A stretch of 32,000 nucleotides of DNA from Candidatus Saccharimonadota bacterium (GTDB lineage: Bacteria > Bacteroidota > Bacteroidia > Cytophagales > Amoebophilaceae), in the NCBI RefSeq assembly GCF_003351905.1, contig NZ_CP022339.1:210001-242000 (forward strand), read 5' to 3'. The position numbers and the translations under genes were made by a program. Below the pieces are notes generated by a model, which saw only the letters and a program-made list of their open reading frames with translations, did no database searches and was not told the DNA's origin. Position 1 is the stretch's first letter; every line of letters starts with the position of its first letter. Shown here in pieces: positions 1 to 16,371 of the stretch.

Positions 1-147
1 GCTAATGGATTAGCTATGATAGCTGCCCATTATTTACTACCTCAACCACCTGGTAAAGGATGGATTGGAGTAGGCCAGCAATATAAAAGAATGAAACAAT
101 TGATACGAATTTTTAAAAAACATAAAAAAAGTATAGATCTAGAGTAG
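1..147 (+). CDS. 3' end of a sodium:solute symporter family gene (5' part lies outside the window)
   Basis: Frame 1 is open from base 1 to TAG at 145-147 and reads ANGLAMIAAHYLLPQPPGKGWIGVGQQYKRMKQL... This aligns by eye with ...ANGLAMMAAHYFLKQPKGTGWVKP... at the end of the transporter domain of the 1197-aa protein at 5366..8959. This paralogue stops where the long protein continues. Confidence 0.6.
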   Translation, partial: ANGLAMIAAHYLLPQPPGKGWIGVGQQYKRMKQLIRIFKKHKKSIDLE

Positions 148-1234: not shown

Positions 1235-1700
1235 CTACTGGCTTATCTCCTTCTCAGATTCAGGATCTTGTGTAGGCTTTAGTTTAATAGGGCTATCTTC
1301 TTCCATACATGCCATATGTTTCGGTTCAAACACTCCGGTGTTAAACAGGTCTTTATTGACCCAAGATACGTCTACCTCTTTCGTTTTTGTTAATAACTCT
1401 TTAGCGCACAATTCCGCTAGTCTATCAGACCGATCAGGCATATTGATATATCTCATAGATCTATTAAATTCTTCTATATTAAATAGAAATTTTTCTTCTG
1501 TAAAGGACTGATAATTTGTTACAAATTTTACAACATTAAAATCCATCCAAACATGCTTTTTAGCAATTTGTTTCTTTAATACCAATCCTTCTAAACTTGT
1601 ACATGCTAAAGGCAACATAGATTTGACCGTGTGCAAATGTCCCTTTTCCTATATCTAAGATTACTTTCTCAAAGGTTTTGCCTTGACTTTTTTGGTATGT
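1235..1700 (-). pseudogene. Chimeric remnant: C-terminal piece of a PIF1-like helicase gene fused to a paralogue of the 10579..10968 ORF
   Basis: About 1500-1700 is near-identical at nucleotide level to about 3850-4020 of the helicase gene (...KSQGKTFEKVILDIG.GTFAH..TSLEGLVLKK.IAKKHVWMDFNVVKF). 1235-1500 encodes FTEEKFLFNIEEFNRSMRYINMPDRSDRLAELCAKELL...WVNKDLFNTGVFEPKHMAC, paralogous to aa 52-120 of 10579..10968. Confidence 0.7.
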
Positions 1701-2349: not shown

Positions 2350-2456
2350 CTGCTTACAATGATGAACTATTGATCGACTCTAGTTTATAACGTAAGTCTA
2401 CTGTAATAGACTTTTAAGATTTTGCATAAAAATATTTCCTGGTGCGATATGTGAGA

Positions 2457-3497
2457 TCAATCATCTTCTATGTCATCTAAATCCTTAGCAAGTTCTGCTT
2501 CCAGTTCCTCAATGGTTGGAAGCACTGTTTGTAATTTTTTAGGCAAGCTTTTAGTAAGCCTGTATGTTGAGAGGCCTATAGGTTTATTGATATCACGTAA
2601 GGTGTATTCTGCTAAAACACCGACCTTGGATCGGCATAAAATTAACCCAATAGAAGGATTATCGCTTGAGTGGCGTAATAAGTCATCCACAGCAGAAAGA
2701 TAAAAATTCATCTTCCCTATATATTCAGGCTTAAAATCCCCAGATTTTAACTCTATAACTATAAAGGATCGAAGCTTGATATGGTAAAATAACAGGTCTA
2801 TATAAAAATCTTGTTCTTCAACTTGAATATGATATTGACGACCTAAGAAAGCAAATCCTTCACCTAATTCAAGTAGAAATTTTTCAATGTGAGCAACTAA
2901 TCCTTTTTCTAATGCTCTTTCATGGGCTTCATCTCCAAGACTTAGAAAATCGAATAAATAAGGATTCTTTAGGGTAGCTTGGGCTAAGGCGGCGTGTGGG
3001 GGAGGTAATTGTTTATCAAAATTGGTGATGGCACCTGACTGACGTTTATATAAATTGGTTTCTATGTGCATAGACAAACTATTTCTTGACCAGCCATTTT
3101 TAATGGTACATTCTATGTAAAACCTTTGTTGAATTTTATCAAGCCCAGAATAGATTAGGACTACAATATGGCCCCATGGTATTTGGTCAACAGCTTGTTG
3201 ACCAATTTCATCTTGATCATATGCTTGAGCAAACTTTCGCATATACTTGAGGTTTTGTGGGCTGAATCCTTTCATCTCTGGAAAAGCAGCTCTTAAATCC
3301 TTTGACAACTCAGCAATAACACCAGTGCCCCATCGTTCTTGCATTTGCGTATGCAGGATACGACTGCCTATATGATGATATAGGGAAACAAGTGCTTTAT
3401 TAACATGCAGAGAGGCTTTATATTTAGCACTGGCTACACTGGTTTTTAAATCATTTAATAATTGATGGTAAGCTTGGTTAATGATACTTTTGTTCAT
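2457..3497 (-). CDS. YhcG-like PD-(D/E)XK nuclease domain protein (DUF1016 family)
   Basis: 346-aa ORF with family-typical strings: IPWGHIVVLI...RFYIECTIKNGWSRNSLSMHIETNLYKR and GFAFLGRQYHIQVEEQDFYIDLLFYHIKLRSFIVIELKSGDFKPEYIGKMNFYLSAVDDLLRH..DNPSIGLILC. Confidence 0.85.
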   Translation of the reverse strand: MNKSIINQAYHQLLNDLKTSVASAKYKASLHVNKALVSLYHHIGSRILHTQMQERWGTGVIAELSKDLRAAFPEMKGFSPQNLKYMRKFAQAYDQDEIGQQAVDQIPWGHIVVLIYSGLDKIQQRFYIECTIKNGWSRNSLSMHIETNLYKRQSGAITNFDKQLPPPHAALAQATLKNPYLFDFLSLGDEAHERALEKGLVAHIEKFLLELGEGFAFLGRQYHIQVEEQDFYIDLLFYHIKLRSFIVIELKSGDFKPEYIGKMNFYLSAVDDLLRHSSDNPSIGLILCRSKVGVLAEYTLRDINKPIGLSTYRLTKSLPKKLQTVLPTIEELEAELAKDLDDIEDD

Positions 3498-3582
3498 ATA
3501 ATGAAGGGATCAGATAATAAAAAGGTACGACAGATACAAAATTTTGACTTCGACCACTAGTGGTGCTTATGCACGTTACCCT

Positions 3583-5130
3583 TTACGGGCTAATCTCCAA
3601 TATTCTATCTACCCTAAATACTCTATATTCTTGCCGTTTTAAGCAAAAAGCCTTTACACCAATATAAGGTTTATTCAAATATTCCATTTCTCCTACAGCA
3701 ATAGGTGTAATGGATCTTTTCGATTTTTCATCTTTTGCTTTTAAATAAGTAATATGGATAGTAGCTTTATGTTGAATAGCTTTTTCTATTATGCTAATTT
3801 TATCCTCTAAAGTACATAAAAGATCATATTTTTTATACTGATAATCTGTTATAAATTTTACAACATTAAAATCCATCCAAACATGTTTTTTAGCAATTGG
3901 TTTCTTTAGTACTAAGCCTTCTAAACTGGTGCATCTGCTAAGGGCAACATAGATTTGACCGTGTGCAAATGTCCCGTTTCCTATATCTAGGATTACTTTT
4001 TCAAAGGTTTTACCTTGGCTTTTATGGATGGTAATAGCCCATGCCAGCATGACTGGATATTGCGTAAAAGTACCCGTAATAGTTGATTTTAATGCACTGC
4101 CCTCTAAGTAAAATTTATAAGATTCCCAAGTATAAGGAGTAATACTGACCTTCTTTCCCGTTTCAAGCAAAATGACCAATTTAGGAGTAGCATGATCTGT
4201 ATCAATATCTATGATTTTGCCAATAGTGCCATTAATAAATTTGCCATTAGGCTCATTATTAAGCATCATTACTTGCGCCCCAACTTTTAACTTTAATGCA
4301 ACAAGTGTAGGTAGTTGTTCTTTTGCAAACGCTCCTTCTAATATACCAGTAAAGGTAAACTCTTTCTGCTTGATACCTTTTAATTTTTGAGCGTTAATAG
4401 CTTGGGCATTTGCATTAGTAGTGGTTAAATAGATATAAAAGTCATCTAAAGAAGGCTCAAAGCCAGCATCATATCGCTCATTAATGATTGCTATTTCACG
4501 GTCCGTTATAGAATTATTGCGAATATTGTTTAACAGCTCGATAAATTTTGTATCACTTTGTCGGTATATTTTATCAAGTTCTATTAATTCAAGGTCCAGT
4601 GATTTGAAACAATGTGCGCTAAAGAAATAGGGGGTAGGATAGTGTGATTGAAAGATTGATTTTTCTTGACTTTGTACCACTGGTGGCAATTGATATAAAT
4701 CACCGATACATATTATTTGTATTCCTCCAAATGGCTCACTTTCCTGTCTACCATTAAGGCGGAGAAAGCCATCTATACAATCAAGTAAGTCAGCCCTAAC
4801 CATTGAAATTTCATCAATGATGATGGCATCTATATTTTTATATATATTCTCTTTTTTCTTACTTTTTTTAGTCGTTTGGATGGCTTCAAGGGTTACATCA
4901 GGTTTAAACCTAAAAAATGAATGAATTGTCTGCCCTTTAATATTTACTGCAGCAGTACCTGTAGGCGCAAGCACTGCTATTTTCTTTTGGGTATTTTCTC
5001 TAAAATGCTTTAATAAAGTTGATTTCCCTGTTCCTGCTTTACCAGTAATAAAAATATTTTTTGCACTTGATTCCATAAGATCAAGTGCTTTAATAAACTG
5101 CTCATTTAGTTCTATATTGGTCTGAGTCAT
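3583..5130 (-). CDS. PIF1/RecD-like superfamily 1 helicase with C-terminal WYL-like domain
   Basis: 515-aa ORF with Walker A ITGKAGTGKSTLL, Walker B IIIDEISMV, GDLYQLPPV and TIHKSQGKTF. The C-terminal 70 aa (ATIHITYLKAKDEKSKRSITPIAVGEMEYLNKPYIGVKAFCLKRQEYRVFRVDRILEI) match the WYL-domain pattern. Confidence 0.85.
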   Translation of the reverse strand: MTQTNIELNEQFIKALDLMESSAKNIFITGKAGTGKSTLLKHFRENTQKKIAVLAPTGTAAVNIKGQTIHSFFRFKPDVTLEAIQTTKKSKKKENIYKNIDAIIIDEISMVRADLLDCIDGFLRLNGRQESEPFGGIQIICIGDLYQLPPVVQSQEKSIFQSHYPTPYFFSAHCFKSLDLELIELDKIYRQSDTKFIELLNNIRNNSITDREIAIINERYDAGFEPSLDDFYIYLTTTNANAQAINAQKLKGIKQKEFTFTGILEGAFAKEQLPTLVALKLKVGAQVMMLNNEPNGKFINGTIGKIIDIDTDHATPKLVILLETGKKVSITPYTWESYKFYLEGSALKSTITGTFTQYPVMLAWAITIHKSQGKTFEKVILDIGNGTFAHGQIYVALSRCTSLEGLVLKKPIAKKHVWMDFNVVKFITDYQYKKYDLLCTLEDKISIIEKAIQHKATIHITYLKAKDEKSKRSITPIAVGEMEYLNKPYIGVKAFCLKRQEYRVFRVDRILEISP

Positions 5131-5151
5131 TCAATTAGTTAGTTACTTACT

Positions 5152-5290
5152 TAATAACCTGCGTGGGAGATTAGGGGTTAAAAATTGAGTTTTGAAAAGC
5201 TCCTTTATGTTGTAAACTTGAAGATCAAATTTTTCACTCAACTAGCAAAGAAGAAAACTATGCGTGTAGGAAAGTTAATGGCCTTTTAAA
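5152..5290 (+). mobile_element. Solo left-end remnant of the IS982-like element seen at 20862 onward
   Basis: TAATAACCTGCGTGGGAGATTAGG...AAAAGCTCCTTTATGTTGTAAACTTGAAGATCAAATTTTTCAC aligns with 20862-20990 (ATTAACCTGAGTTCGGGATTAGA...AAAAGCTCCTTTGTGTTTTAAATTTGGAGATCAAATTTTCAAC). Similarity fades shortly after the position of the transposase ATG. Confidence 0.6.
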
Positions 5291-5365
5291 AAATGATGAT
5301 TGCTTATATTGACACTATTGGTCAAAACAAGTGTATAATTTAAGCAAATTTTTAGGGAAAATGTA

Positions 5366-8300
5366 TTAACTATCTTTATCCTTTCTTTTACTATTTTCTT
5401 TATTTTTACAATCCTCTAGCGCTTGTTTAGCGGCTTTTTCTAATAGCTTTCCTATCTCTGGCCCCAAATATTCGTTTGCTAACCTAACATCTATGGCTAA
5501 CGTTTCTTTAGCCATATGCGCTACTTCTTGTAGATGAATATATCCTGCTGCGTGGCGTAGGTCATAGAGTCGTTCAGCTAGTTTAATAAAGAGGACCGAA
5601 AGTTGTACGTGATCTTCCTTGATCGCCTCTTTCAATCGATTCTGCACATAGAGCAAAGAAGGATGATCTAAGTCTTGGCGCTTATCTATGCCTATTACAT
5701 TTAACACAAAGGCATAGACACCTAAATTATAATGTTCTTTAATGTAAGAAATAGGTAAACAAGTATGGCGCACAAGCTCATAGAGCAAAGAAGCATAAAT
5801 CACTTTAGGAGAGTGAAAAACCCATTCTATCACTAATTCAGTAATCCCTACCGCACGCACATAAAACAATTGACCAGAAGCATGCCGTTTAAATCCAAAA
5901 TGCTGCCTTAACAGTAAAAGCAACCCTGAAATGATTTTTATATCAATAGGATCCTCTGCATGAGACGCTTTACAAATATAGTCATGGAACCTCATTAATG
6001 CCATCATAGAATTAGCTTGCTCTTTAGGCGTGGCTAGTCCTTCTGAGGTTAAACAATCTAGAGGCAATTCGACAGTCATATTATCTAGAATATCCGTAAC
6101 ATTGCTAGGAAATACGAGCAACATAGTAGGGTGCTGGCTATCAATAGAAACTTCCAAATAGCCATAATGGGCACGCACTATAGTGGATATGGTGTCTTGC
6201 TCCAGATCTATGGATGGTAGTACCTTTTTCTTGCCTTGAGCTTCTGTAGCATCTATTGTATCATTATAAACCTCCTTTACCTTAAGAAGTGCACCAGAAT
6301 CAATAGTAGCCTGGCTAATTACTAAAGCAGTAGCTTGAAAATCTATAAAGGCAGCATGGCTGCTATCAATAGGATCAGCTCGCTTAAATTGCAAAGAAGT
6401 GGCATACAGTTGTATGCTAATAATAGGTACATTTGGGCCCTCTAGCTTACCAATTCGTAAAATAGACTTAACCAATGAATAGACTACTTGATGGATATCG
6501 CATACCATATCGAGACATGGTTCTCCATTAGGAAGACTTGTAGTTTCTACCAGCAGCTTAGGTGGAGCAGCTACTTCTTGAGATAAAGCAATCTCTACCT
6601 TACGTATCAACTTTTCTAAAGTGATTTTATCAGGTTGTAGTAGTGCATGATCCTTAGCTTTTTCTCTTCTATTAAAATAGATGATCCAGTCATAAAATTT
6701 ATTAATAATACTTTGAAGATCTTCTTTAAAAAGTGGAGTATGGTTGTCTAAAAAAGAGATAGATTCTTCAACTTTACGCACTACTTGGTTTAAAATAAAG
6801 CCATACCCTTTAGGTGGAGCAGCTCCATTGGAGGGAACGAGAGCCACGTCATAGAGGAATGCTTTGAGTTGTTGGGATGCTCTAATTTCTTCTTGATTTT
6901 TTAGGTAGCGCACTTGCTTCATACAATTACCTAGGTTGACTTTCAAACAAATAATAATGGTAAATAGAAACATAATCAATATAAATATAAATGTCGGGAG
7001 TAATGAGCATAATACTGGATAGGGTAATCCATTAGAAGTCGGATAAATAACCACTAATAAAGTGAGTACTAAACCTGCTATGCCTAGATAGAGTGGCAAT
7101 ACCCATAAGATTACGGCGCAATGGGCTAAAGATAATGATGTGGTAAAGATGGAGTTTTCCGCATTCCACGAATGCCAAAATAAATTTAGAGGCAGATAAA
7201 GCGTTAGGCCTATTAGCCAACATAGGCCAATAGACCAAGCTGGAATCAATCTTATCTTTTTCGAGATATCATAAATAAATGGATAACCTAAAAAACAAGT
7301 AGATACAAAGAGTTGAAGTATAAGCCAAGAACCATGATGGGTAATATGCTCTATAAAATAAGCTAGCAAACTAGTGACGGTAGTATAGCATCCTATATAT
7401 ACAATCGTAGTATGGCTGGGTACCAGATTAGCCAATATAACCTTTCTATTTACCCAAACATTTTTAATTGTTTCTCTTCGTTCCGCGCGCTTACGGGCAT
7501 TTTCTTGTTTAATTTGTGTAAATATGCTATCTGGCTTAACCCAACCTGTACCTTTTGGCTGTTTGAGAAAATAATGGGCTGCCATCATGGCTAATCCATT
7601 GGCTAACATACAAGAGAAAGCACCATCTATACCTATCTCTGGATCAAGTGGTTCAACCCATTTGCTCCAAACTAAAATAGCTAGTGTACCTGTAGCCATA
7701 CCAATTAGGGCTGTACGAGAAGTGCCTCGAAAACCAAAAACCGATAATATAAAAGGAGCAGTTACTATGGGTATTGAAAAGTCAATAGCTAGAAACATTA
7801 ATTTCAATAAATCCCTGCACCAAAAAGCTACACACATAGCACACAGGCCAATTACTATAGTAGTCAGCCTAGCTACCCGTATTTGATAGATATAAAGAGT
7901 TTTTTTTACTCCTCGGATACTTCCCACAATATCATGACTAACCATAACGGCACAAGAATTTAAGTACGAATCAGCTGTAGACATAGACATGGCTAGCAAA
8001 CTAATGGAAAAACAACCTTTAAAAGTAGGGGGGATATTGTGCATTATATAGGGCCAAATCTTTTCTTTTGGTAAATCAGGTGTTCCAACAAAAATAAACA
8101 GACCCACTAGAATAATACAACCTTCTATAAGAAGACTAAAAATACTACCATATGAGAAAACTTTTTGGGCCTGAAGTGGGTCTGAAGCCATATATAATCT
8201 CTGGATAGTTGTAGGTTTTATATAATACACTATGCCAGATAAAATCAGCGAAACTATAGCTGCTAGCTTAGTATCAAAATGCAATACAGTGCTAAACTGA

Positions 8301-8959
8301 AATTTTCCCCGTCTTTGTAAAGAAGCAATAACTTCTGATATGGGGATCTCTGTTTTTATAAAAACAAACCAAGCTAAAAGAGGAATAATCATGGAAAAGG
8401 TTAGAAACTGCAATACATCTGTAAAGGTAACCGAACGAATACCCCCAAAAGCAGAATAAGCAATAAGAATTAAGGTAGCGAGGATTGTAATTTCTCCGGA
8501 GTCAACTGGTCCTACACAGATACTAATTGTTTTAGAGATTACAACAATTTGGATGGAAAGACTAACAATAGATCGACAAATATTAGATATAGCAGTAATA
8601 ATCCTTGGATACTTACCATATACATGCCCTATGGTCTCTGCCATAGAGAGGTGTTTCATAAATGGTCTCATACGTACTGCCAATCGACTAATAATCCAAA
8701 TGCAAAAACTGCTATCGAAAATTAGAAATATTATCCAATAAAGTCCGATATCATGGATTTTCTCTACCTCACGCACCAACCCTCCTCCACCAAAATTAGT
8801 AGCCAACATTGTAGCTACTAACGTAGCTGTAGCAAACTGTTTATTCCCTACTGCATATTCTCGGAAGGTGGTTGTTTTTCTACTAAAATAAAATCCCACG
8901 GCTAGTGTGAATAATAAAAAGGCCACGACCATTAAAAGGGGTATATTAAGAGATGTCAT
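5366..8959 (-). CDS. Multidomain membrane protein: N-terminal sodium:solute symporter domain, additional TM block, degenerate kinase-like middle region, C-terminal degenerate RelA/SpoT-type HD domain
   Basis: 1197-aa ORF. aa 1-480 are polytopic with the SSF signature region SAFGGIRSVTFTDVLQF. aa ~510-680 carry further hydrophobic helices. aa 1018-1165 align by eye with the SpoT/Rel HD domain (HFGFKRHASGQLFYVRAVGI / ASLLYELVRHT / VLFIKLAERLYDLR / AKETLAIDVRLANEYLG). Confidence 0.8.
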   Translation of the reverse strand: MTSLNIPLLMVVAFLLFTLAVGFYFSRKTTTFREYAVGNKQFATATLVATMLATNFGGGGLVREVEKIHDIGLYWIIFLIFDSSFCIWIISRLAVRMRPFMKHLSMAETIGHVYGKYPRIITAISNICRSIVSLSIQIVVISKTISICVGPVDSGEITILATLILIAYSAFGGIRSVTFTDVLQFLTFSMIIPLLAWFVFIKTEIPISEVIASLQRRGKFQFSTVLHFDTKLAAIVSLILSGIVYYIKPTTIQRLYMASDPLQAQKVFSYGSIFSLLIEGCIILVGLFIFVGTPDLPKEKIWPYIMHNIPPTFKGCFSISLLAMSMSTADSYLNSCAVMVSHDIVGSIRGVKKTLYIYQIRVARLTTIVIGLCAMCVAFWCRDLLKLMFLAIDFSIPIVTAPFILSVFGFRGTSRTALIGMATGTLAILVWSKWVEPLDPEIGIDGAFSCMLANGLAMMAAHYFLKQPKGTGWVKPDSIFTQIKQENARKRAERRETIKNVWVNRKVILANLVPSHTTIVYIGCYTTVTSLLAYFIEHITHHGSWLILQLFVSTCFLGYPFIYDISKKIRLIPAWSIGLCWLIGLTLYLPLNLFWHSWNAENSIFTTSLSLAHCAVILWVLPLYLGIAGLVLTLLVVIYPTSNGLPYPVLCSLLPTFIFILIMFLFTIIICLKVNLGNCMKQVRYLKNQEEIRASQQLKAFLYDVALVPSNGAAPPKGYGFILNQVVRKVEESISFLDNHTPLFKEDLQSIINKFYDWIIYFNRREKAKDHALLQPDKITLEKLIRKVEIALSQEVAAPPKLLVETTSLPNGEPCLDMVCDIHQVVYSLVKSILRIGKLEGPNVPIISIQLYATSLQFKRADPIDSSHAAFIDFQATALVISQATIDSGALLKVKEVYNDTIDATEAQGKKKVLPSIDLEQDTISTIVRAHYGYLEVSIDSQHPTMLLVFPSNVTDILDNMTVELPLDCLTSEGLATPKEQANSMMALMRFHDYICKASHAEDPIDIKIISGLLLLLRQHFGFKRHASGQLFYVRAVGITELVIEWVFHSPKVIYASLLYELVRHTCLPISYIKEHYNLGVYAFVLNVIGIDKRQDLDHPSLLYVQNRLKEAIKEDHVQLSVLFIKLAERLYDLRHAAGYIHLQEVAHMAKETLAIDVRLANEYLGPEIGKLLEKAAKQALEDCKNKENSKRKDKDS

Positions 8960-9197
8960 AATGAGATGAATCTATATTTTTGGATTCTATGTTTTCTCTC
9001 ATTTGGTCTATACCTTCCTTATTTTCAAGGAAAATGTATACAGCTTGATAAAAGAATTCATCTTGAGTCATATTTTTACAATAACAATAATCCTGAATTT
9101 CCTCTATCATATTAGTTGGTAACACTGCTGGTACTTTTCGTGTCTCAATACTTTTATCAGTATCAGTTGAAGTATATTGATCCTCTTGTTCTTTCAT
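8946..9197 (-). CDS. Small ribbon-helix-helix (CopG/Arc-like) protein, overlapping the start of the symporter-fusion gene by 14 nt
   Basis: 83-aa ORF. RKVPAVLPTNMIEEIQDYCYCKNMTQDEFFYQAVYIFL fits the beta-strand/helix/helix RHH pattern (..V.LP......I........S..EFI..AV...L). Its stop is at 8946-8948 and the downstream ATG is at 8957-8959. Confidence 0.6.
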   Translation of the reverse strand: MKEQEDQYTSTDTDKSIETRKVPAVLPTNMIEEIQDYCYCKNMTQDEFFYQAVYIFLENKEGIDQMRENIESKNIDSSHYDIS

Positions 9198-9841
9198 TTT
9201 GTATTAGGTTTTTTTATGAAATGGCATCTAATATTAGTTTGGAAGCTATCCCTTACTTAAAACGAATATAAAAAATATTTATATATATACATACATATGT
9301 ATATATATAAATATGTATGTATTTAAGAAACAAACTGATTATTTAAATTGATTATCTGATTATTATGAAATAGGATAGGGTGGTTAAGAAATATTAAATA
9401 GTATTTTTATTAAAAAAATTTAGTCTAAAGCTAGTTGGATAAACTATAGATTCTTGTTAAAAACAACTAATATAGATATATTGTTTTTCTATGAAATTCA
9501 GTAGATTATGTATCTATAAAAGATATTAAGTATTTTTTAAGGATTTAACTTTAGGTATTGAAGACTTAACTTTCAAAGATAAATCGAAACACCTACTGTA
9601 ATCTGTTTAGAGAGGCTATTGGGAGAACCTCAACTTGATAGCTTACAAAGAATTAATTAAAATCAGTCTATGATTCTGGTTCTGGTTCAGAGTATCCCCA
9701 AACCGCTTTGTTAGTATTAATATGTTTGATTATATTTATATGTATATATATACGGCATGCTTGTTGATTGTATACTAAGAAACAATTTCTAAATCAGACT
9801 TAGATCTGGTTGCTTCAATTTCAGTTCAAACATAGTAAAAA

Positions 9842-10102
9842 ATGAAAGAAGAAGATCAAGGTAATACAACTGATACTGATAAAAGCATTGAGACACGAAA
9901 AATACTTGCAGTTTTACCAGTCTCTATGATAGAGAAGATTCAAGATTATTGTTATTGGAAAAACATGACTCAAAAAGAGTTCTTGTATCAAGCTGTAGCT
10001 GCGTTTCTAAAAGGGAAAAAAATTGAAAGTAGACCAGATTCAGTTAAGTATAGAGATGAATTCCTTAGAAAACGTAAAGCTAAAAAAAACAACATACCAT
10101 AG
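9842..10102 (+). CDS. Small ribbon-helix-helix protein, inverted paralogue of 8946..9197
   Basis: 86-aa ORF MKEEDQGNTTDTDKSIETRKILAVLPVSMIEKIQDYCYWKNMTQKEFLYQAVAAFL. Most positions are identical to the other copy over the first ~55 residues and the similarity is also clear at nucleotide level. Confidence 0.6.
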   Translation: MKEEDQGNTTDTDKSIETRKILAVLPVSMIEKIQDYCYWKNMTQKEFLYQAVAAFLKGKKIESRPDSVKYRDEFLRKRKAKKNNIP

Positions 10103-10578: not shown

Positions 10579-10968
10579 TCAGGGGTACCAAATAAGACTA
10601 TCTTCGTCCGTCCGTACACACACCATATGTTTCGGTTCAAAGACACCTGTATTAAATAGAGCTTTGTTCACCCAGTACACGTCTCCATCTTTAATTTTTG
10701 CTAATAAAGCTTTAGTGCATAGTTCCGCTAGCCCATCAGATGGATGCGCTATATTGATATATCTCATGAATCTATTAAATTCGTTTACTCTAAATAAGAA
10801 CTTTTCTTCTGTAAATGCTTGCTTATAAATTAGGTACTTTATGAGATGTCGAGCAGTATTTGAAAGGTCATTTATAAAAGATTCATCGAATATTTTTTCT
10901 GATTTATAGTTTAAAAAAGGGTTATAAGAGAACCTTTTTAAGTCTTCTAAATTGTGTTTTTTAACCAT
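10579..10968 (-). CDS. Hypothetical protein (paralogous fragment at 1235..1500)
   Basis: 129-aa ORF starting 12 nt downstream of the ankyrin gene on the same strand. No family recognised. Conservation with the remnant at 1235..1500 argues that it is a real coding sequence. Confidence 0.5.
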   Translation of the reverse strand: MVKKHNLEDLKRFSYNPFLNYKSEKIFDESFINDLSNTARHLIKYLIYKQAFTEEKFLFRVNEFNRFMRYINIAHPSDGLAELCTKALLAKIKDGDVYWVNKALFNTGVFEPKHMVCVRTDEDSLIWYP

Positions 10969-10980
10969 AACTCAGTTATT

Positions 10981-11715
10981 TTATAGTGCATGCTGTTCCC
11001 ATGCATAAGACTGGCGTAATTGATCAACATATTCATGGTAAAAAGACCATTTGGCTATATCAACAGGCGTTTGGTTATACTGATTTTTAATGCGTACATT
11101 AACGCCTTTTGTTTTAAGTAATACTTTAGACACTTCTAAGTACGCCTGACAAGTTGCCAAATGCAATGCAGTACTGCTATATTTATTTTTTGCATTGATA
11201 TTTATAAATTTGTTCTCCAGTAGCAGTTGTACTACTTCTATTTTTCCACTGTATGCCGCTAAATGTAAAGGCGTATTATCATCTTTATCTCTGGCATTTA
11301 TATCAATACCTATTGTATTCAATAATAGTTCAACTGTTTCTACATCACCATTATTGGTTGCTAAATGAAGAGGCGTCAAGTCATCTTTATCTTTACTATT
11401 TACGTTAATAAAAGGTTGATCCAATAATATTTGAATAATATTTAAATGCTTTGCATATACTGCCAAATGTAGTGCAGTATCACCATCTCTATTTTTAATA
11501 TTGACATTAATTTCTTTTATTGTCAATAACATTTGAATGTGTTCTACATTACCTTCACATGCTGCAAAATGTAACGAGGTATCTCCATATGTATTTTTTG
11601 CATTCACATCAATTCCTTCAATTTTAAGTAGTTTGTTAAGGCGCCCTATATCATTAATGACTGCTGCCCAATGTAGGAAAGTATTCTCGTGGTCATCTTT
11701 TGCATGCATTAACAT
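10981..11715 (-). CDS. Ankyrin-repeat protein (about 6-7 ANK repeats)
   Basis: Repeated ~33-aa units with G(D/N)T.LH.A...G....(V/I)..LL...(G)I(D/N)VN.K(N/D): GDTSLHFAACEGNVEHIQMLL, GDTALHLAVYAKHLNIIQILL, LTPLHLATNNGDVETVELLL, NTPLHLAAYSGKIEVVQLLL, STALHLATCQAYLEVSKVLL. Confidence 0.9.
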   Translation of the reverse strand: MLMHAKDDHENTFLHWAAVINDIGRLNKLLKIEGIDVNAKNTYGDTSLHFAACEGNVEHIQMLLTIKEINVNIKNRDGDTALHLAVYAKHLNIIQILLDQPFINVNSKDKDDLTPLHLATNNGDVETVELLLNTIGIDINARDKDDNTPLHLAAYSGKIEVVQLLLENKFININAKNKYSSTALHLATCQAYLEVSKVLLKTKGVNVRIKNQYNQTPVDIAKWSFYHEYVDQLRQSYAWEQHAL

Positions 11716-12135: not shown

Positions 12136-13104
12136 ATGTCAACCAGACTAAAACATGATGCACTAGTTAAGAAAATCCTAACACAACAAGAGGCTGCTCA
12201 AGAGTTTTTAGCCCATTATTTACCATCAGAGGTCAAAGGAAAGTTAGATTTAACCCGAATTACTATTGAAAGAGAATCTTATGTGGAGCATAAGCTCAGG
12301 AAATCCCTAAGTGATCTAGTCTACTCGGTACGAACGAAAGATAATGACCAGGCATTTGTCTACATACTTATAGAGGCAGAGGTAAAACCTAATTACTGGA
12401 TTGCACTGAAATTGTGGCAATATATGCTTCGTTTATGTGAGCGCCATAAAAAAAGAGATAAAGACAAATTACCTCTGATCGTACCCATTTTGTTCTACCA
12501 TGGTAGTAGACCCTTTAATGCACCAAAGAATTTATGGGCATTATTTAGTGGTCCAAAGCTTGCTAAACAGCTTATGGGTGGAGACTATAAACTGGTAGAT
12601 TTACAGTCCATATCAGATGATGATATCAAGCAAAAGAAATATCTAGGAATGCTTGAATATGTTATGAAACATATCTATCAGCGAGATATTCTTAATCTAT
12701 GGGAGGAATTTTTACAAAACTTTAAACCTTATATTCTACTTGACAAAGAAAAAGGCTATATTCATATTAAAAATTTCTTATGGTACACTGATAGCAAATT
12801 ACCTGAAGATAAACAAAAAGACTTAGAAAGAATCATCGATCAACATTTACCTGAACAAGATAAAGAAGATATTATGAGAACTATAGCACAAAAATATAGG
12901 GAAGAAGGGGTTCAAATTGGTCAGAAAAAAGGGAAACTAATGGGTATCCAAATTGGCCAAGAAAAAGGCAAGCTAGAGGGAAAGTTAGAGGGCAAGCTAG
13001 AAATAGCTAGAGTCCTATTGTCCGAAGGAGAATCGATAGAAAGAGTCATACGCCTAACCGGCCTATCTACTGCTCAGCTTAAAGGCCTTAAACCAACTAA
13101 CTAG
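12136..13104 (+). CDS. Rpn family recombination-promoting nuclease / putative transposase (YhgA-like PD-(D/E)XK, Transposase_31)
   Basis: 322-aa ORF. The N-terminus HDALVKKILTQQEAAQEFLAHYLPSEV...LSDLVYSV....AFVYILIEAE...LPLIVPILFYHG matches the E. coli RpnA/YhgA layout. The C-terminal tail is of the type GKLEGKLEIARVLLSEGESIERVIRLTGLSTAQLKGL. Confidence 0.8.
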   Translation: MSTRLKHDALVKKILTQQEAAQEFLAHYLPSEVKGKLDLTRITIERESYVEHKLRKSLSDLVYSVRTKDNDQAFVYILIEAEVKPNYWIALKLWQYMLRLCERHKKRDKDKLPLIVPILFYHGSRPFNAPKNLWALFSGPKLAKQLMGGDYKLVDLQSISDDDIKQKKYLGMLEYVMKHIYQRDILNLWEEFLQNFKPYILLDKEKGYIHIKNFLWYTDSKLPEDKQKDLERIIDQHLPEQDKEDIMRTIAQKYREEGVQIGQKKGKLMGIQIGQEKGKLEGKLEGKLEIARVLLSEGESIERVIRLTGLSTAQLKGLKPTN

Positions 13105-13116
13105 GTAGGTATTTTA

Positions 13117-14464
13117 GGAAGTGTTCGATGAACTGTGTCAATTCCTAAAAGAGTTATAAATTAAATAATTAACGACTAAAGGTTTTTAGACATGGAAGAG
13201 CATATGAACAATGATTACGTTGGTTTAGTAGATTATAAAGATTTGGAGGAAAACATTTTGTCCTCTATCCGTTTAGGTAAGCCATTGACAGGCAAAGGTG
13301 GGGCATTAACCCCTCTGATAAAAAAGCTTCTAGAGGCGAGTCTAGAAGGTGAGATGGCCCATCATTTGTCTAGTGAGAGGATAGTAAATAATCGAAGGAA
13401 TGGTAAAAGTTGTAAAACTTTTCGTACAAGCTCTGGTTCCTTTGACTTGGTAACCCCTAGAGATAGAACAGGTAGTTTCGATCCACAAATAGTTAAAAAG
13501 CGTCAAACAAATCTTCATCCTGAACTGGAAACCAAGATTTTAAGCATGTTTTCTAGTGGTATGAGCTATAAGTCTATAGCCGCTCATATTGAAGAAATCT
13601 ATGATCATAAAGTATCAGCTGCTGAAATATCGGCTATTACAGATAGCTTATTGCCAGTAATAAATGAATGGCGTAACCGTCCTCTTCAATCGGTCTACCC
13701 CATAGTTTTTATGGATGGTATGTTTTTTAAGGTTAAAGAAGATGGGAAATGTGTAAGTAAATGTCTGTATACCTTATTAGGCATAGATCAAGAGGGTAAA
13801 AAAGAAGTGTTAGGCTTCTATTTATCTGAAAGTGAGGGAGCTAATTTCTGGTTAGGTGTACTCAACGAGCTTAAGGCAAGGGGTGTAGAAGATATCCTTA
13901 TTGCCTGTGTTGATGGACTAAAAAGCTTCCCTGCAGCCATTAATAACGCTTTTCCCAATGCACAGGTGCAGGTCTGTGTAGTACACCAGATACGCAATTC
14001 CATCAAGTATGTAGCTAGCAAAGATGTAAAACGTTTTTTAACTGATTTAAAGCAAGTATATCAAGCTTCAAATAAGGAAGTTGCAGAACATTATCTATTG
14101 GAATTAGAAGAAAAATGGGGAGAAAAGTATCCAATGGTTATCAAATCTTGGCAAAACAACTGGGAGCATTTGTCTGGTTACTTTAAATATTCAGATCCTG
14201 TCAGAAGGCTAATTTATACGACCAATCCAATAGAAAGCCTCCATAGACAAATTAGACAGTTTACCAAAACAAAAGGGGCATTTACCAGTGTCAATGCTTT
14301 GTATAAATCAGTATATTGCGCTATCAAGAAGATGGAGGATAAATGGACTATGCCGCTCAGAAACTGGGCACTGACCATATCTCAGATAGACATCTTTTTT
14401 CCTGGAAGAGTCAAATCTGAGTTGACGTGAAGCCCGAAACTGACACAGTTAATTGAACACTTCC
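13117..14464 (+). mobile_element. IS256-family insertion sequence, apparently intact (1348 bp)
   Basis: IRL GGAAGTGTTCGATGAACTGTGTCAATT (13117-13143) matches the reverse complement of 14438-14464, GGAAGTGTTCAATTAACTGTGTCAGTT, at 24 of 27 positions. A single transposase ORF fills the element. The flanking 8-mers differ (GTATTTTA vs TCAGGATC), so there is no target-site duplication. Confidence 0.85.
13192..14430 (+). CDS. IS256-family (Mutator-type) DDE transposase
   Basis: 412-aa ORF with family-typical strings: LLEASLEGEMAHHL, NGKSCKTFRTSSGSFDLVTPRDRTGSFDPQIVKKRQ, MYKSIAAHIEEIY, IVFMDGMFFKV, ACVDGLKSFPAAINNAFPNAQVQVCVVHQIRNS, TTNPIESLHRQIR. Confidence 0.9.
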   Translation: MEEHMNNDYVGLVDYKDLEENILSSIRLGKPLTGKGGALTPLIKKLLEASLEGEMAHHLSSERIVNNRRNGKSCKTFRTSSGSFDLVTPRDRTGSFDPQIVKKRQTNLHPELETKILSMFSSGMSYKSIAAHIEEIYDHKVSAAEISAITDSLLPVINEWRNRPLQSVYPIVFMDGMFFKVKEDGKCVSKCLYTLLGIDQEGKKEVLGFYLSESEGANFWLGVLNELKARGVEDILIACVDGLKSFPAAINNAFPNAQVQVCVVHQIRNSIKYVASKDVKRFLTDLKQVYQASNKEVAEHYLLELEEKWGEKYPMVIKSWQNNWEHLSGYFKYSDPVRRLIYTTNPIESLHRQIRQFTKTKGAFTSVNALYKSVYCAIKKMEDKWTMPLRNWALTISQIDIFFPGRVKSELT

Positions 14465-14696: not shown

Positions 14697-16371
14697 TCAT
14701 GCACACCTTCTGTGTAATTCATCATGACAATGTCCATGCAACATAGATAGGTTTTGGTATGTATTATTGCGTCTGTTTCGGTCTCTATGATGTATTTCTA
14801 AGATATCATCATGTTTGAACCAAAGTTGGCAATAGTCACATTTACCCTGTTGTAGATTCAATAGTTTTATTACTCTTGGTGACTTATCTGGTATTTTCTT
14901 TAGACGATTCCCCCAGTAAATCCAATCACCATCGTATGGTGAGCGGGTTCCTTGCACTTTGACATGCTTTTTAATGTCATGGTCTCCATGCTTAATAAGT
15001 GTAATTTTATTACTTGTCATAAATCGCCAATTGTCATTGCCATACTTTTTGAAGTATCGTCTTTTAATCCAACGTTTCCCTTTGTTGGGGTGTCTATACA
15101 TTGCCCATTTCCAAAGTTTTTTATGCATCAGATCATCCATTCTGCTAAAGTTCCTCTTTGATCCTATAGAAGAAGCATAATATTGACTCCATCCTTTAAT
15201 GATAGAATTGAGTTCTTTTATTACTACTTCCTGTGTCATTCCTCGCATTTGCTTAAGCTTATGTTTGATCTTTAGATTGTGGTGTTTACTGGATTTATGA
15301 CTTGGTTTAATAGATAACTTGTAACCTTTCTTATTGTGTTTTGTTGGAACATGTCGTATGTTAAATCCTAGAAAGTCAAATCCTGGTTGGTCGCCTTTTA
15401 CTGTATGTGAAATCTTCGTCTTTGATGGTTTTAGTTCTAAACCAATGGTTTTTAACCATGTTTCGACTATAACCTTTGCCTTTTTAATGATTTCTTCATC
15501 CTCGTGAATAACAACAAAGTCATCAGCATAGAATATTACACTGATATATCGTTGAGCTTCTTTACATGATGCTTTCCCTCTTTTCTTTTTCATAAACTGA
15601 AAAAGTTCTTTGCTCAGCTCTTTCTTGATATGATCTTCCAATCCATGCAGTGCCACGCAGGCCAAGAGTGGAGATATTGTTCCACCTTGTATTGTACCTT
15701 GTGGTGTGGATATAAACTTTCTATCTTCCATTACTCCAGCGTTTAGCCAACCTTTTATAATTCTTTTAAAGGTGGGGGTAGTGTTGAGTTTTTCCAATAG
15801 TACGTTTTGGTCGATCTTATCAAAACATTCAGCAATATCTGCGTCTAAAACATATGCAGTTTTTTTGACCATAGTGATGAATATTGCTTCAATTGCATCA
15901 TGACATGACCGCCCAGGTCTAAAACCATAAGTGTTTGGAGCAAACTTTGCTTCCCACTCTGGTTCCAGGGCCATTTTCATAAGTGTTTGTTTTGCTCTAT
16001 CAGATATAGTGATAATGCCTAACGGTCTTTTGTCATTTTTCCCAGGTTTGGGAATCCAAACTCGTCTGGATGGTTGTGCTTTAGCTCTTAATATCTAATG
16101 AATAGGCTAATTCTATTCTTTCTTCTTGGTTAAGATTTGCTTTCCCATCAATACCAGCGCTCTTTCTTCCTCTATTGTCCTGAGTTACTCTTCTGACTGC
16201 TAGCAATTTTGCACTTATGGAATTAAGTAATAGTTTTTGAAGTTTATGTACATTCTTGATATCCTTACGTTTTTCAGCTTGGTAAATTCGCTTTTGTAGC
16301 TTGAATACTTTTTTCTCTAGCTTACGCCAGGGAATTATATCCCATTTATACCAAGTTTTATCTTGGTCCAT
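14697..16371 (-). pseudogene. Group II intron-encoded RT-maturase-HNH endonuclease, interrupted by one frameshift/stop near 16080
   Basis: The upstream ORF (16371..16081) carries RT domain 0/1 (LLAVRRVTQDNRGRKSAGIDG). The downstream frame has ..AQPSRRVWIPKPGKNDKRPLGIITISDR..YGFRPGRSCHDAI..FYADDFVV..KGWSQYY.. and the HNH region CDYCQLWF...EIHHRDRNRRNNTYQNLSMLHGHCHDELH. The two parts are offset by +1 at TAA 16083-16081. Confidence 0.85.

Follow-up and report, generated by a model that had tools for sequence, protein, structure and literature searches.

The window analysed here is a stretch of 32,000 nucleotides from contig NZ_CP022339.1 (positions 210,001 to 242,000). It belongs to Candidatus Cardinium, an insect endosymbiont of the Amoebophilaceae within the Bacteroidota, in agreement with the Bacteroidota origin assigned in a preliminary description of the same DNA. 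One gene of the window encodes a membrane protein of 1197 amino acids, in which four parts follow one another from the N- to the C-terminus: a symporter core of the SSF/SLC5 type (TC 2.A.21), six additional transmembrane helices, a kinase-like module combining DHp and CA domains, and a Rel/SpoT-type HD_4 domain. Judged from alignments and structural models, both signalling modules have lost their catalytic residues. The overall picture that we favor, by a modest measure, is that of a Na+-coupled transceptor whose ancestral (p)ppGpp-hydrolysis output has been turned, in Cardinium, into a non-catalytic regulatory or binding module.

The gene lies on the minus strand, which the preliminary description had not specified, and consists of a single unbroken open reading frame (ORF) of 1197 codons followed by a stop, read from position 8959 down to 5366. 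A full-length AlphaFold2 (AF2) model, based on an alignment of 48 homologues (pLDDT 81, pTM 0.67), lays the protein out as a symporter extending to about residue 470, a linker helix, six transmembrane helices, a helical hairpin, an alpha/beta domain and an all-helical C-terminal domain (Table 1). The N-terminal transporter had already been recognized by eye. Indeed, the Pfam family SSF (PF00474) matches residues 35-424 (E 6.9e-13, 48.7 bits for a cut-off of 22.8), and TIGR00813 is found with an E-value of 2.5e-21, even if its 76.2 bits remain under the curated cut-off of 184. In the AF2 model this region adopts a LeuT-type fold, for which the best Foldseek match in the PDB is the sialic-acid symporter SiaT (5nva, TM-score 0.85, rmsd 3.4 A), followed by CHT1, SGLT2 and NIS. 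The Ser/Thr pair of the Na2 site in the eighth transmembrane helix (S327/T328) aligns with S342/S343 of SiaT, and the Na3 positions D330/S331 align with S345/S346; both pairs are near-invariant across the family. As modelled and aligned, the SSF/SLC5 domain is a complete LeuT-type fold in which the Na+-site residues are kept.

Between this domain and the signalling domains, the AF2 model places a basic helix and then the six transmembrane helices (residues 516-536, 543-569, 574-599, 603-620, 623-641 and 653 to about 675), which correspond to the roughly six hydrophobic segments noticed previously. The sixth one runs on as a helix into the cytoplasm up to residue 706 and is followed by helices 719-735 and 742-769. 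No Pfam or NCBIfam family matches this six-helix module. A STAC domain was not detected either: SSF and HD_4 are the only Pfam matches of the protein at E-values up to 10, the presence of the STAC model in the searched library being unconfirmed.

At the opposite end of the protein, HD_4 (PF13328) is matched by residues 1019-1162, with 30 bits for a cut-off of 27.2 and an E-value of 5e-7 for the full protein, and with 35.2 bits and an E-value of 1.3e-8 when the C-terminus is scanned alone. A search of the PDB using the single sequence of the HD region gives marginal matches (7qps, E 0.008; mycobacterial RelA, E 0.8), and the homology therefore rests on Pfam and on intact homologues. These two lines, including a continuous homology to the intact members, uphold the Rel/SpoT kinship formerly proposed for residues 1018-1165. 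In the Rel/SpoT hydrolases, Mn2+ is bound by H53, H77, D78 and D144 (Rel_Seq numbering). Once aligned with the intact-site homologues, the protein of the window reads RA for HP (R1035), YE for HD (Y1060, E1061), RH for ED (R1064, H1065) and E..YD for D..HN (E1129, Y1132, D1133). The His/Asp metal ligands of the H..HD..D pattern are replaced by R1035, Y1060, E1061 and E1129, while the ED dyad and the HN of DR.HN are replaced by R1064/H1065 and Y1132/D1133. The alignment confirms every replacement listed in the preliminary description.

The extent of this loss was determined on an alignment of 101 full-length sequences, comprising 13 distant members and 88 sequences of the Cardinium clade. The intact signature H-HD-ED-D-HN is present in all 13 distant homologues (R.SGEP[FY]..HP, LLHD.VEDT, KLADR.HNMR). 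The 88 Cardinium-clade sequences read without exception R-Y[DEG]-R[YHR]-E-YD, with replacement residues that are nearly fixed. The degenerate clade is monophyletic in a neighbor-joining tree of the SSF domain alone, which makes one ancestral inactivation the simplest reading. By these alignments, a degenerate HD domain does not characterize the family as a whole but is a derived trait of the Cardinium clade. In other Amoebophilaceae genomes, further independent and partial inactivations of the HD domain are found beside intact paralogues of the same genome.

A protein deprived of catalytic residues in both output domains could be a plain nutrient transporter, whose kinase-like and HD-like regions are decaying remnants inherited from a signalling ancestor. 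Copies reduced to the SSF domain or otherwise truncated do exist, in the window itself (1..147) and at loci L033 (493 aa) and L059 (483 aa), and the literature handles the family as transporters (PMC5698495, PMC8831229). This explanation is nevertheless unlikely. The Cardinium paralogues share only 45-63% identity over their full length, and the HD domain is their best-conserved part: the mean pairwise identity is 0.69 there, versus 0.56 in the SSF domain and 0.41 in the CA-like one. The dN/dS of the HD domain, calculated against the syntenic orthologues, is 0.20, the lowest of all regions, the overall value being 0.28-0.30. This combination of highest identity and lowest dN/dS argues for a maintained pseudoenzyme rather than debris, as do replacement residues nearly fixed in 88 sequences out of 88. 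In addition, some 700 residues of relic sequence would not be expected to last in at least 12 copies within a reduced genome of about 1 Mb.

Alternatively, the HD domain could still be an enzyme, with a remodelled active site, metal-independent or differently liganded, and a new substrate. A pocket may persist, since the substituted positions carry conserved polar or charged residues (R1035, Y1060, E/D1061, R1064, E1129, Y1132, D1133) and since G1029, K1126, R1130, T1066 and E1152, common to the active homologues, are invariant. However, the four Mn2+ ligands and the ED dyad are all lost, an Arg in place of a metal ligand is a typical trait of pseudoenzymes, and we know of no precedent for hydrolysis in the HD superfamily without the His-Asp metal site. 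A surviving enzymatic activity is consequently improbable.

The gene of the window might also be a young or dying pseudogene, or its ORF an artefact of the assembly fusing two genes. The syntenic orthologues, which share 92-94% nucleotide identity with it, are broken by 1-nucleotide indels. In the Cardinium of Nabis limbatus (OZ239769, L079, 5243-8541), the indel falls at codon 351 and is accompanied by N-terminal deletions beside a transposase gene; in L080 and L081 (CP101107/VMBH01000001, 5850-9439), indels affect codons 39 and 923. The copy of the window is, however, unbroken over 3.6 kb, its dN/dS stays near 0.3 even when the broken orthologues serve as reference, and a sequencing error could account for one of their indels, located in an A8 stretch. 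As for an assembly fusion, it can be ruled out because full-length homologues of matching architecture, about 100 proteins from dozens of genomes, have been found; the long uninterrupted reading frame reported initially is thereby vindicated. Taken as a whole, the pseudogene or artefact explanation has a small chance of being correct.

The region located between the membrane and the HD domain had been compared, with more hesitation, to a degenerate HATPase_c fold. This comparison was well founded. A profile of the family matches the sensor kinase ThkA (3a0r, E 7e-6) over the DHp domain and the start of CA, the H-box of ThkA being aligned with non-His residues. A separate AF2 model of residues 681-1003 (pLDDT 75) was submitted to Foldseek, and its top 50 PDB matches are all DHp+CA structures of the histidine kinase type. 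The best one is ZraS (E 5e-10), followed by RetS, HK853, CckA and DivL, in a set that mixes bona fide kinases with degenerate relatives (RetS, DivL, plant phytochrome A). In alignments of 25 to 48 members, no conserved phospho-acceptor His is found in the DHp domain, and the N, G1 and G2 ATP-binding boxes are absent, including from alignments against the canonical-kinase relatives. The Pfam models HisKA and HATPase_c match none of 25 members (the protein of the window and 24 relatives), and NCBIfam gives no match in the region either. An hhalign comparison with the canonical kinase of the Rickettsiales relatives (E 2.4e-4) brings the N-box and the 'vHgG' motif onto degenerate positions. The only invariant residues of the kinase-like region are Y898, H931, G933 and P951, and the CA-like domain displays a conserved family motif, A-H-Y-G (H931, Y932, G933). 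A profile of this region retrieved 272 cluster representatives among 1.84 billion proteins. Most full-length matches (about 1100-1250 aa) contain it at about 680-990, the remainder being shorter proteins or fragments, and it is therefore a narrow, family-specific pseudokinase. On the strength of these alignments and models, the middle region is a dead histidine kinase. An active sensor kinase of the CbrA/CrbS type phosphorylating a response regulator, as the DHp+CA fold and the canonical kinases of close Rickettsiales relatives could suggest, is already contradicted by the absence of the His and of the three boxes, and was rejected as highly improbable. Each of these rival explanations (vestigial tail, remodelled enzyme, pseudogene or artefact, active kinase) is contradicted by at least one direct result.

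The family provides the evolutionary context of this double loss. A total of 327 homologues were found, and the full-length form is represented by many paralogues, at least 15 of which lie on one Cardinium chromosome of 1.19 Mb. The hosts are obligate intracellular bacteria, namely the Amoebophilaceae, including Cardinium, and the Rickettsiales. An attribution of the intact-HD homologues to free-living Bacteroidota was dropped: a scan of one genome per species, using as query the membrane-to-kinase part of the intact-HD group, places them in Amoebophilaceae/Cytophagales genomes of 0.9-1.45 Mb, often as tandem copies, and their hosts are for this reason probably symbionts too. One complete genome of 1.45 Mb labelled 'Roseivirga sp.' (CP136537.1; loci L025, L026, L028, L031, L033 and L007) contains at least seven family copies, some in tandem, among which the HD site is intact in some cases and degenerate to varying degrees in others. 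Judging from its size and content, this genome would come from a symbiont akin to the Amoebophilaceae and not from a free-living Roseivirga.

In the Rickettsiales, the family occurs under two forms. The first one, represented by 36 genes of about 930-950 codons, combines the symporter and the six helices with a canonical kinase that retains its H, N, G1 and G2 boxes (Pfam HisKA 2.6e-14, HATPase_c 3.7e-25), and has no HD domain. The second form, found at seven distinct loci, has neither canonical kinase nor HD domain and measures about 915-1018 aa where uninterrupted. The degenerate AHYG-type region was detected in L030, L036, L037 and L041, while L039 (split into two ORFs), L046/47 and L062 were assigned to the pseudokinase loci by their length and lack of canonical kinase. 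Five of the seven pseudokinase loci, versus none of the 36 canonical-kinase genes, have a stand-alone HD_4 gene at a distance of 0-900 bp (Fisher calculation, about 2e-5). This gene encodes a protein of 207 aa (E 2e-28) with intact motifs, in which the leading helix and the C-terminal end are as in the fused HD domain; its nearest relatives are small HD-domain proteins common in Rickettsia and Tisiphia. By sequence comparison, the stand-alone and the C-terminal HD_4 stand in a split-versus-fused relationship. The family can be arranged accordingly by alignment into a series of four forms: (1) symporter, six helices and canonical kinase; (2) symporter, six helices and pseudokinase adjoining a stand-alone small alarmone hydrolase, in the Rickettsiales; (3) pseudokinase and hydrolase fused, with an intact site, in other Amoebophilaceae; and (4) the Cardinium form, whose hydrolase is also dead. 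A gene of alarmone synthesis was encountered as well. In a Bacteroidota metagenome-assembled genome (MAG; L024), a truncated Rel-type synthetase of 418 aa (2388-3644, plus strand; RelA_SpoT 6e-32, with a weak degenerate HD_4) is located 113 bp upstream of tandem symporter-pseudokinase genes of the family (3758-6517 and 6480-9938).

The transceptor favored here would operate as follows. A host-derived solute would be taken up with Na+ by the SSF domain, and the transport or occupancy state of the symporter would be transmitted by the bundle of six helices and the exit helix to a putatively dimeric pseudokinase scaffold, which would in turn control the C-terminal HD module. In the intact-site relatives, the output would be the hydrolysis of (p)ppGpp, so that the starvation signal would fall as nutrients flow in. 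In the Cardinium protein, hydrolysis would be lost from the HD domain, which might act, by analogy, either as a nucleotide or alarmone sensor gating the transporter or as a protein-interaction surface. Such a fate would be comparable to that of the pseudo-hydrolase domain of E. coli RelA, which is catalytically dead and retained for regulation. The idea of a transceptor, put forward in the preliminary description, was in our judgment the right one, the coupling between the parts being predicted from the sequence.

Several points weigh against this picture. The uptake of a host solute, the dimerization and a ligand of the pseudo-HD domain are predictions, and the direction of signalling, from transporter to HD or from HD to transporter, is not deducible from the sequence. 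Frameshifts interrupt the syntenic orthologues of two other Cardinium lineages (three assemblies), so that this particular copy may be one that the bacterium can do without. A neighboring hydrolase gene was observed at only five loci, from Rickettsiales or MAGs. The adjacency of a synthetase was encountered in L024 alone, two other truncated Rel genes having no neighbor from the family. Finally, in a search bearing on whether Cardinium still makes (p)ppGpp, no RelA/SpoT homologue (RSH) synthetase named as Cardinium appears among the 120 best matches of the truncated Rel of L024.

Transceptors in which an SLC5 transporter is fused to a signalling device are already known as a kind; what is added here is their anatomy in this family and the evolutionary series. 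CbrA, CrbS/MxtR and RpuS (PMC7096432, PMC5715377, PMC9100948, PMC13022988) have in common with the protein of the window an N-terminal SSF/SLC5 domain and DHp+CA on one polypeptide, together with the logic of a transporter doubling as a sensor. In contrast to them, this protein has no detected STAC, PAS or REC domain, its transporter is joined to the cytoplasmic part by six transmembrane helices, its kinase fold is devoid of His and ATP motifs, and its terminal output is a SpoT-type HD domain instead of a phosphotransfer to a response regulator. The Rickettsiales 'SLC5sbd+HK' proteins, annotated as PanF/PutP (PMC5615194, PMC10732058), are genuinely homologous to the protein of the window, sharing its SSF core and six extra helices; they have proliferated and are linked to mobile elements. 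Most of them (the 36 genes described above) keep HisKA and HATPase_c and carry no HD domain, unlike the pseudokinase and fused pseudo-HD of the window. The small alarmone hydrolases of the RickSpo type (PMC3153485) are HD_4 proteins of roughly 200 aa, homologous to the C-terminus of the protein, including the preceding helix and the C-terminal end. The HD domain of the window differs from them as the C-terminus of a 1197-aa membrane protein. Since every metal and catalytic residue is missing in the Cardinium clade, this domain counts as homologous to RickSpo but not as one of the RickSpo enzymes. RetS and DivL, two pseudokinases that rank among the best structural matches of the kinase-like region, are likewise dead descendants kept for regulation or protein-protein signalling. 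These two and the pseudo-hydrolase of E. coli RelA are soluble or differently anchored, and none of them is fused to a transporter.

The genes themselves have not gone unnoticed. They have been described as expressed 'putative sodium/solute symporters', numbering 12 in Cardinium cEper1 and 19 in Amoebophilus (PMC5698495, PMC8831229), and a metabolic reconstruction of Rickettsia reported a lateral spread of SLC5 and SLC5-kinase transporters among Rickettsiales, Amoebophilus and Cardinium (PMC5615194). The RSH census of Atkinson et al. (2011) signalled a 'rickSpo[H] expansion' of 15 RSHs in Amoebophilus, in a text where the words 'symporter' and 'transmembrane' are absent and a membrane fusion is not mentioned (PMC3153485). 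Our results suggest that the census had counted, as part of this expansion, HD domains belonging to the membrane proteins of the present family. The papers searched, which cover the literature incompletely, gave no description of the three-part fusion, of the double pseudo-enzyme status or of the link to a stand-alone hydrolase, and this absence is provisional. The initial claim that the architecture had not been described thus stands as far as an explicit account is concerned, but the family was already annotated in databases, large, and noted for its spread (PMC5615194). More generally, the preliminary description was correct for every part of the anatomy; it overstated the novelty, and the degeneracy that it saw in the HD domain is confined to the Cardinium clade.

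Table 1. Features of the gene and of its surroundings in the window (aa, residues of the 1197-aa protein).
Feature	Positions (strand)	Evidence or remarks
Whole gene, SSF-6TM-pseudokinase-pseudoHD	5366..8959 (-), stop codon 5366-5368	ORF list and translation; about 100 full-length homologues of 1110-1250 aa with identical order of parts
SSF/SLC5 symporter core, aa 1-470	7550..8959 (-)	Pfam, TIGR00813, Foldseek, Na+-site alignment
Basic linker helices, aa 478-511, probably cytoplasmic	7427..7528 (-)	AF2 helices 478-503 and 505-511; K/R-rich
Six additional transmembrane helices, aa 516-675, family-specific membrane module	6935..7414 (-)	AF2; also in canonical-kinase Rickettsiales relatives
Long exit helix and DHp-like hairpin, aa 676-770, without conserved phospho-acceptor His	6650..6934 (-)	AF2, ThkA profile match
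CA (HATPase_c)-like alpha/beta domain, aa 777-963, without N, G1 and G2 boxes	6071..6631 (-)	Foldseek, hhalign
Pre-HD helix and RickSpo-type Rel/SpoT HD, aa 978-1165, degenerate	5465..6028 (-)	Pfam HD_4 aa 1019-1162 = nt 5474-5905
Lys/Glu-rich helical C-terminal tail, aa 1166-1197	5369..5464 (-)	AF2 helix 1167-1196; poorly conserved (identity 0.40)
Small upstream ORF, 83 aa	8946..9197 (-)	14-nt overlap with gene start; 74-aa version in syntenic loci of two other Cardinium genomes
3' end of another symporter-family paralogue	1..147 (+)	tblastn to aa 453-485, 55% identity, E 4e-7
Ankyrin-repeat protein	10981-11715	Window neighbourhood
YhgA-like transposase	12136-13104	Window neighbourhood
Mutator-family transposase	13192-14430	Window neighbourhood
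Group II intron reverse transcriptase/maturase	14697-15980	Window neighbourhood

The gene is embedded in a region rich in mobile elements, with a PIF1-WYL helicase, a YhcG nuclease, an ankyrin protein, transposases and a group II intron reverse transcriptase (Table 1). The PIF1-WYL helicase and the YhcG nuclease also come after the orthologue in three assemblies representing two other Cardinium lineages. The family evidently turns over by birth and death. The partial paralogue at the very start of the window, mentioned in the preliminary description, is real and ends just after the SSF core, 16 residues past the end of its match at residue 485. About 150 nucleotides beyond it, on the same strand (about 300-520), lies a fragment similar to the N-terminal end of the Mutator-family transposase, and this short paralogue may accordingly have been truncated by an insertion sequence. 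The small ORF that overlaps the start of the gene looks by eye like a ribbon-helix-helix protein, has no Pfam match, and occurs in its 74-aa version at L079 and L080. In Pseudomonas, cbrA is likewise preceded by a small ORF, cbrX, to which it is translationally coupled (PMC6591292). Another ORF (1235-1636, minus strand, 133 aa) seems to be a chimera: in its N-terminal part it reproduces the C-terminal region of the PIF1 helicase at 3583-5130 (…SLEGLVLKK.IAKKHVWMDFNVVKF…) and in the rest the ORF at 10579-10968, which points to duplication and rearrangement at the local scale. In the Rickettsiales pseudokinase proteins of L030, L036, L037 and L041, the last 40 residues or so form a short conserved tail (…IAK[VI]TKLSLEE[IV]..L) that resembles, by eye, the C-terminal tail of the YhgA-like transposase of the window.

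These proteins form the dominant transporter family of Cardinium and Amoebophilus, in which 12-19 copies occupy an estimated 5%, roughly, of a 1-Mb genome. They offer a natural series for the origin of pseudoenzymes, leading from an active kinase to a pseudokinase accompanied by a hydrolase and then to a double pseudoenzyme. A more ambitious scenario, which we regard as possible though doubtful, is that a lineage of SLC5 transceptors swapped its two-component kinase output for a direct control of alarmone hydrolysis, and that the hydrolase later became a pseudoenzyme receptor in Cardinium. If this scenario is true, the starvation signal would be turned off when a host metabolite is imported, and a nutrient-transporter family of 12-19 copies would be gated by, or report to, (p)ppGpp-like nucleotides, representing a new class of second-messenger module embedded in a transporter. 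The association of a pseudokinase with a SpoT-type module, the hydrolases adjoining it in the Rickettsiales and a site that is intact in some lineages but, in Cardinium, dead and yet conserved suggest that intracellular bacteria connect the uptake of nutrients with stress-nucleotide signalling, and lead to the testable hypothesis that the supply of host nutrients is coupled to the growth control of the endosymbiont.

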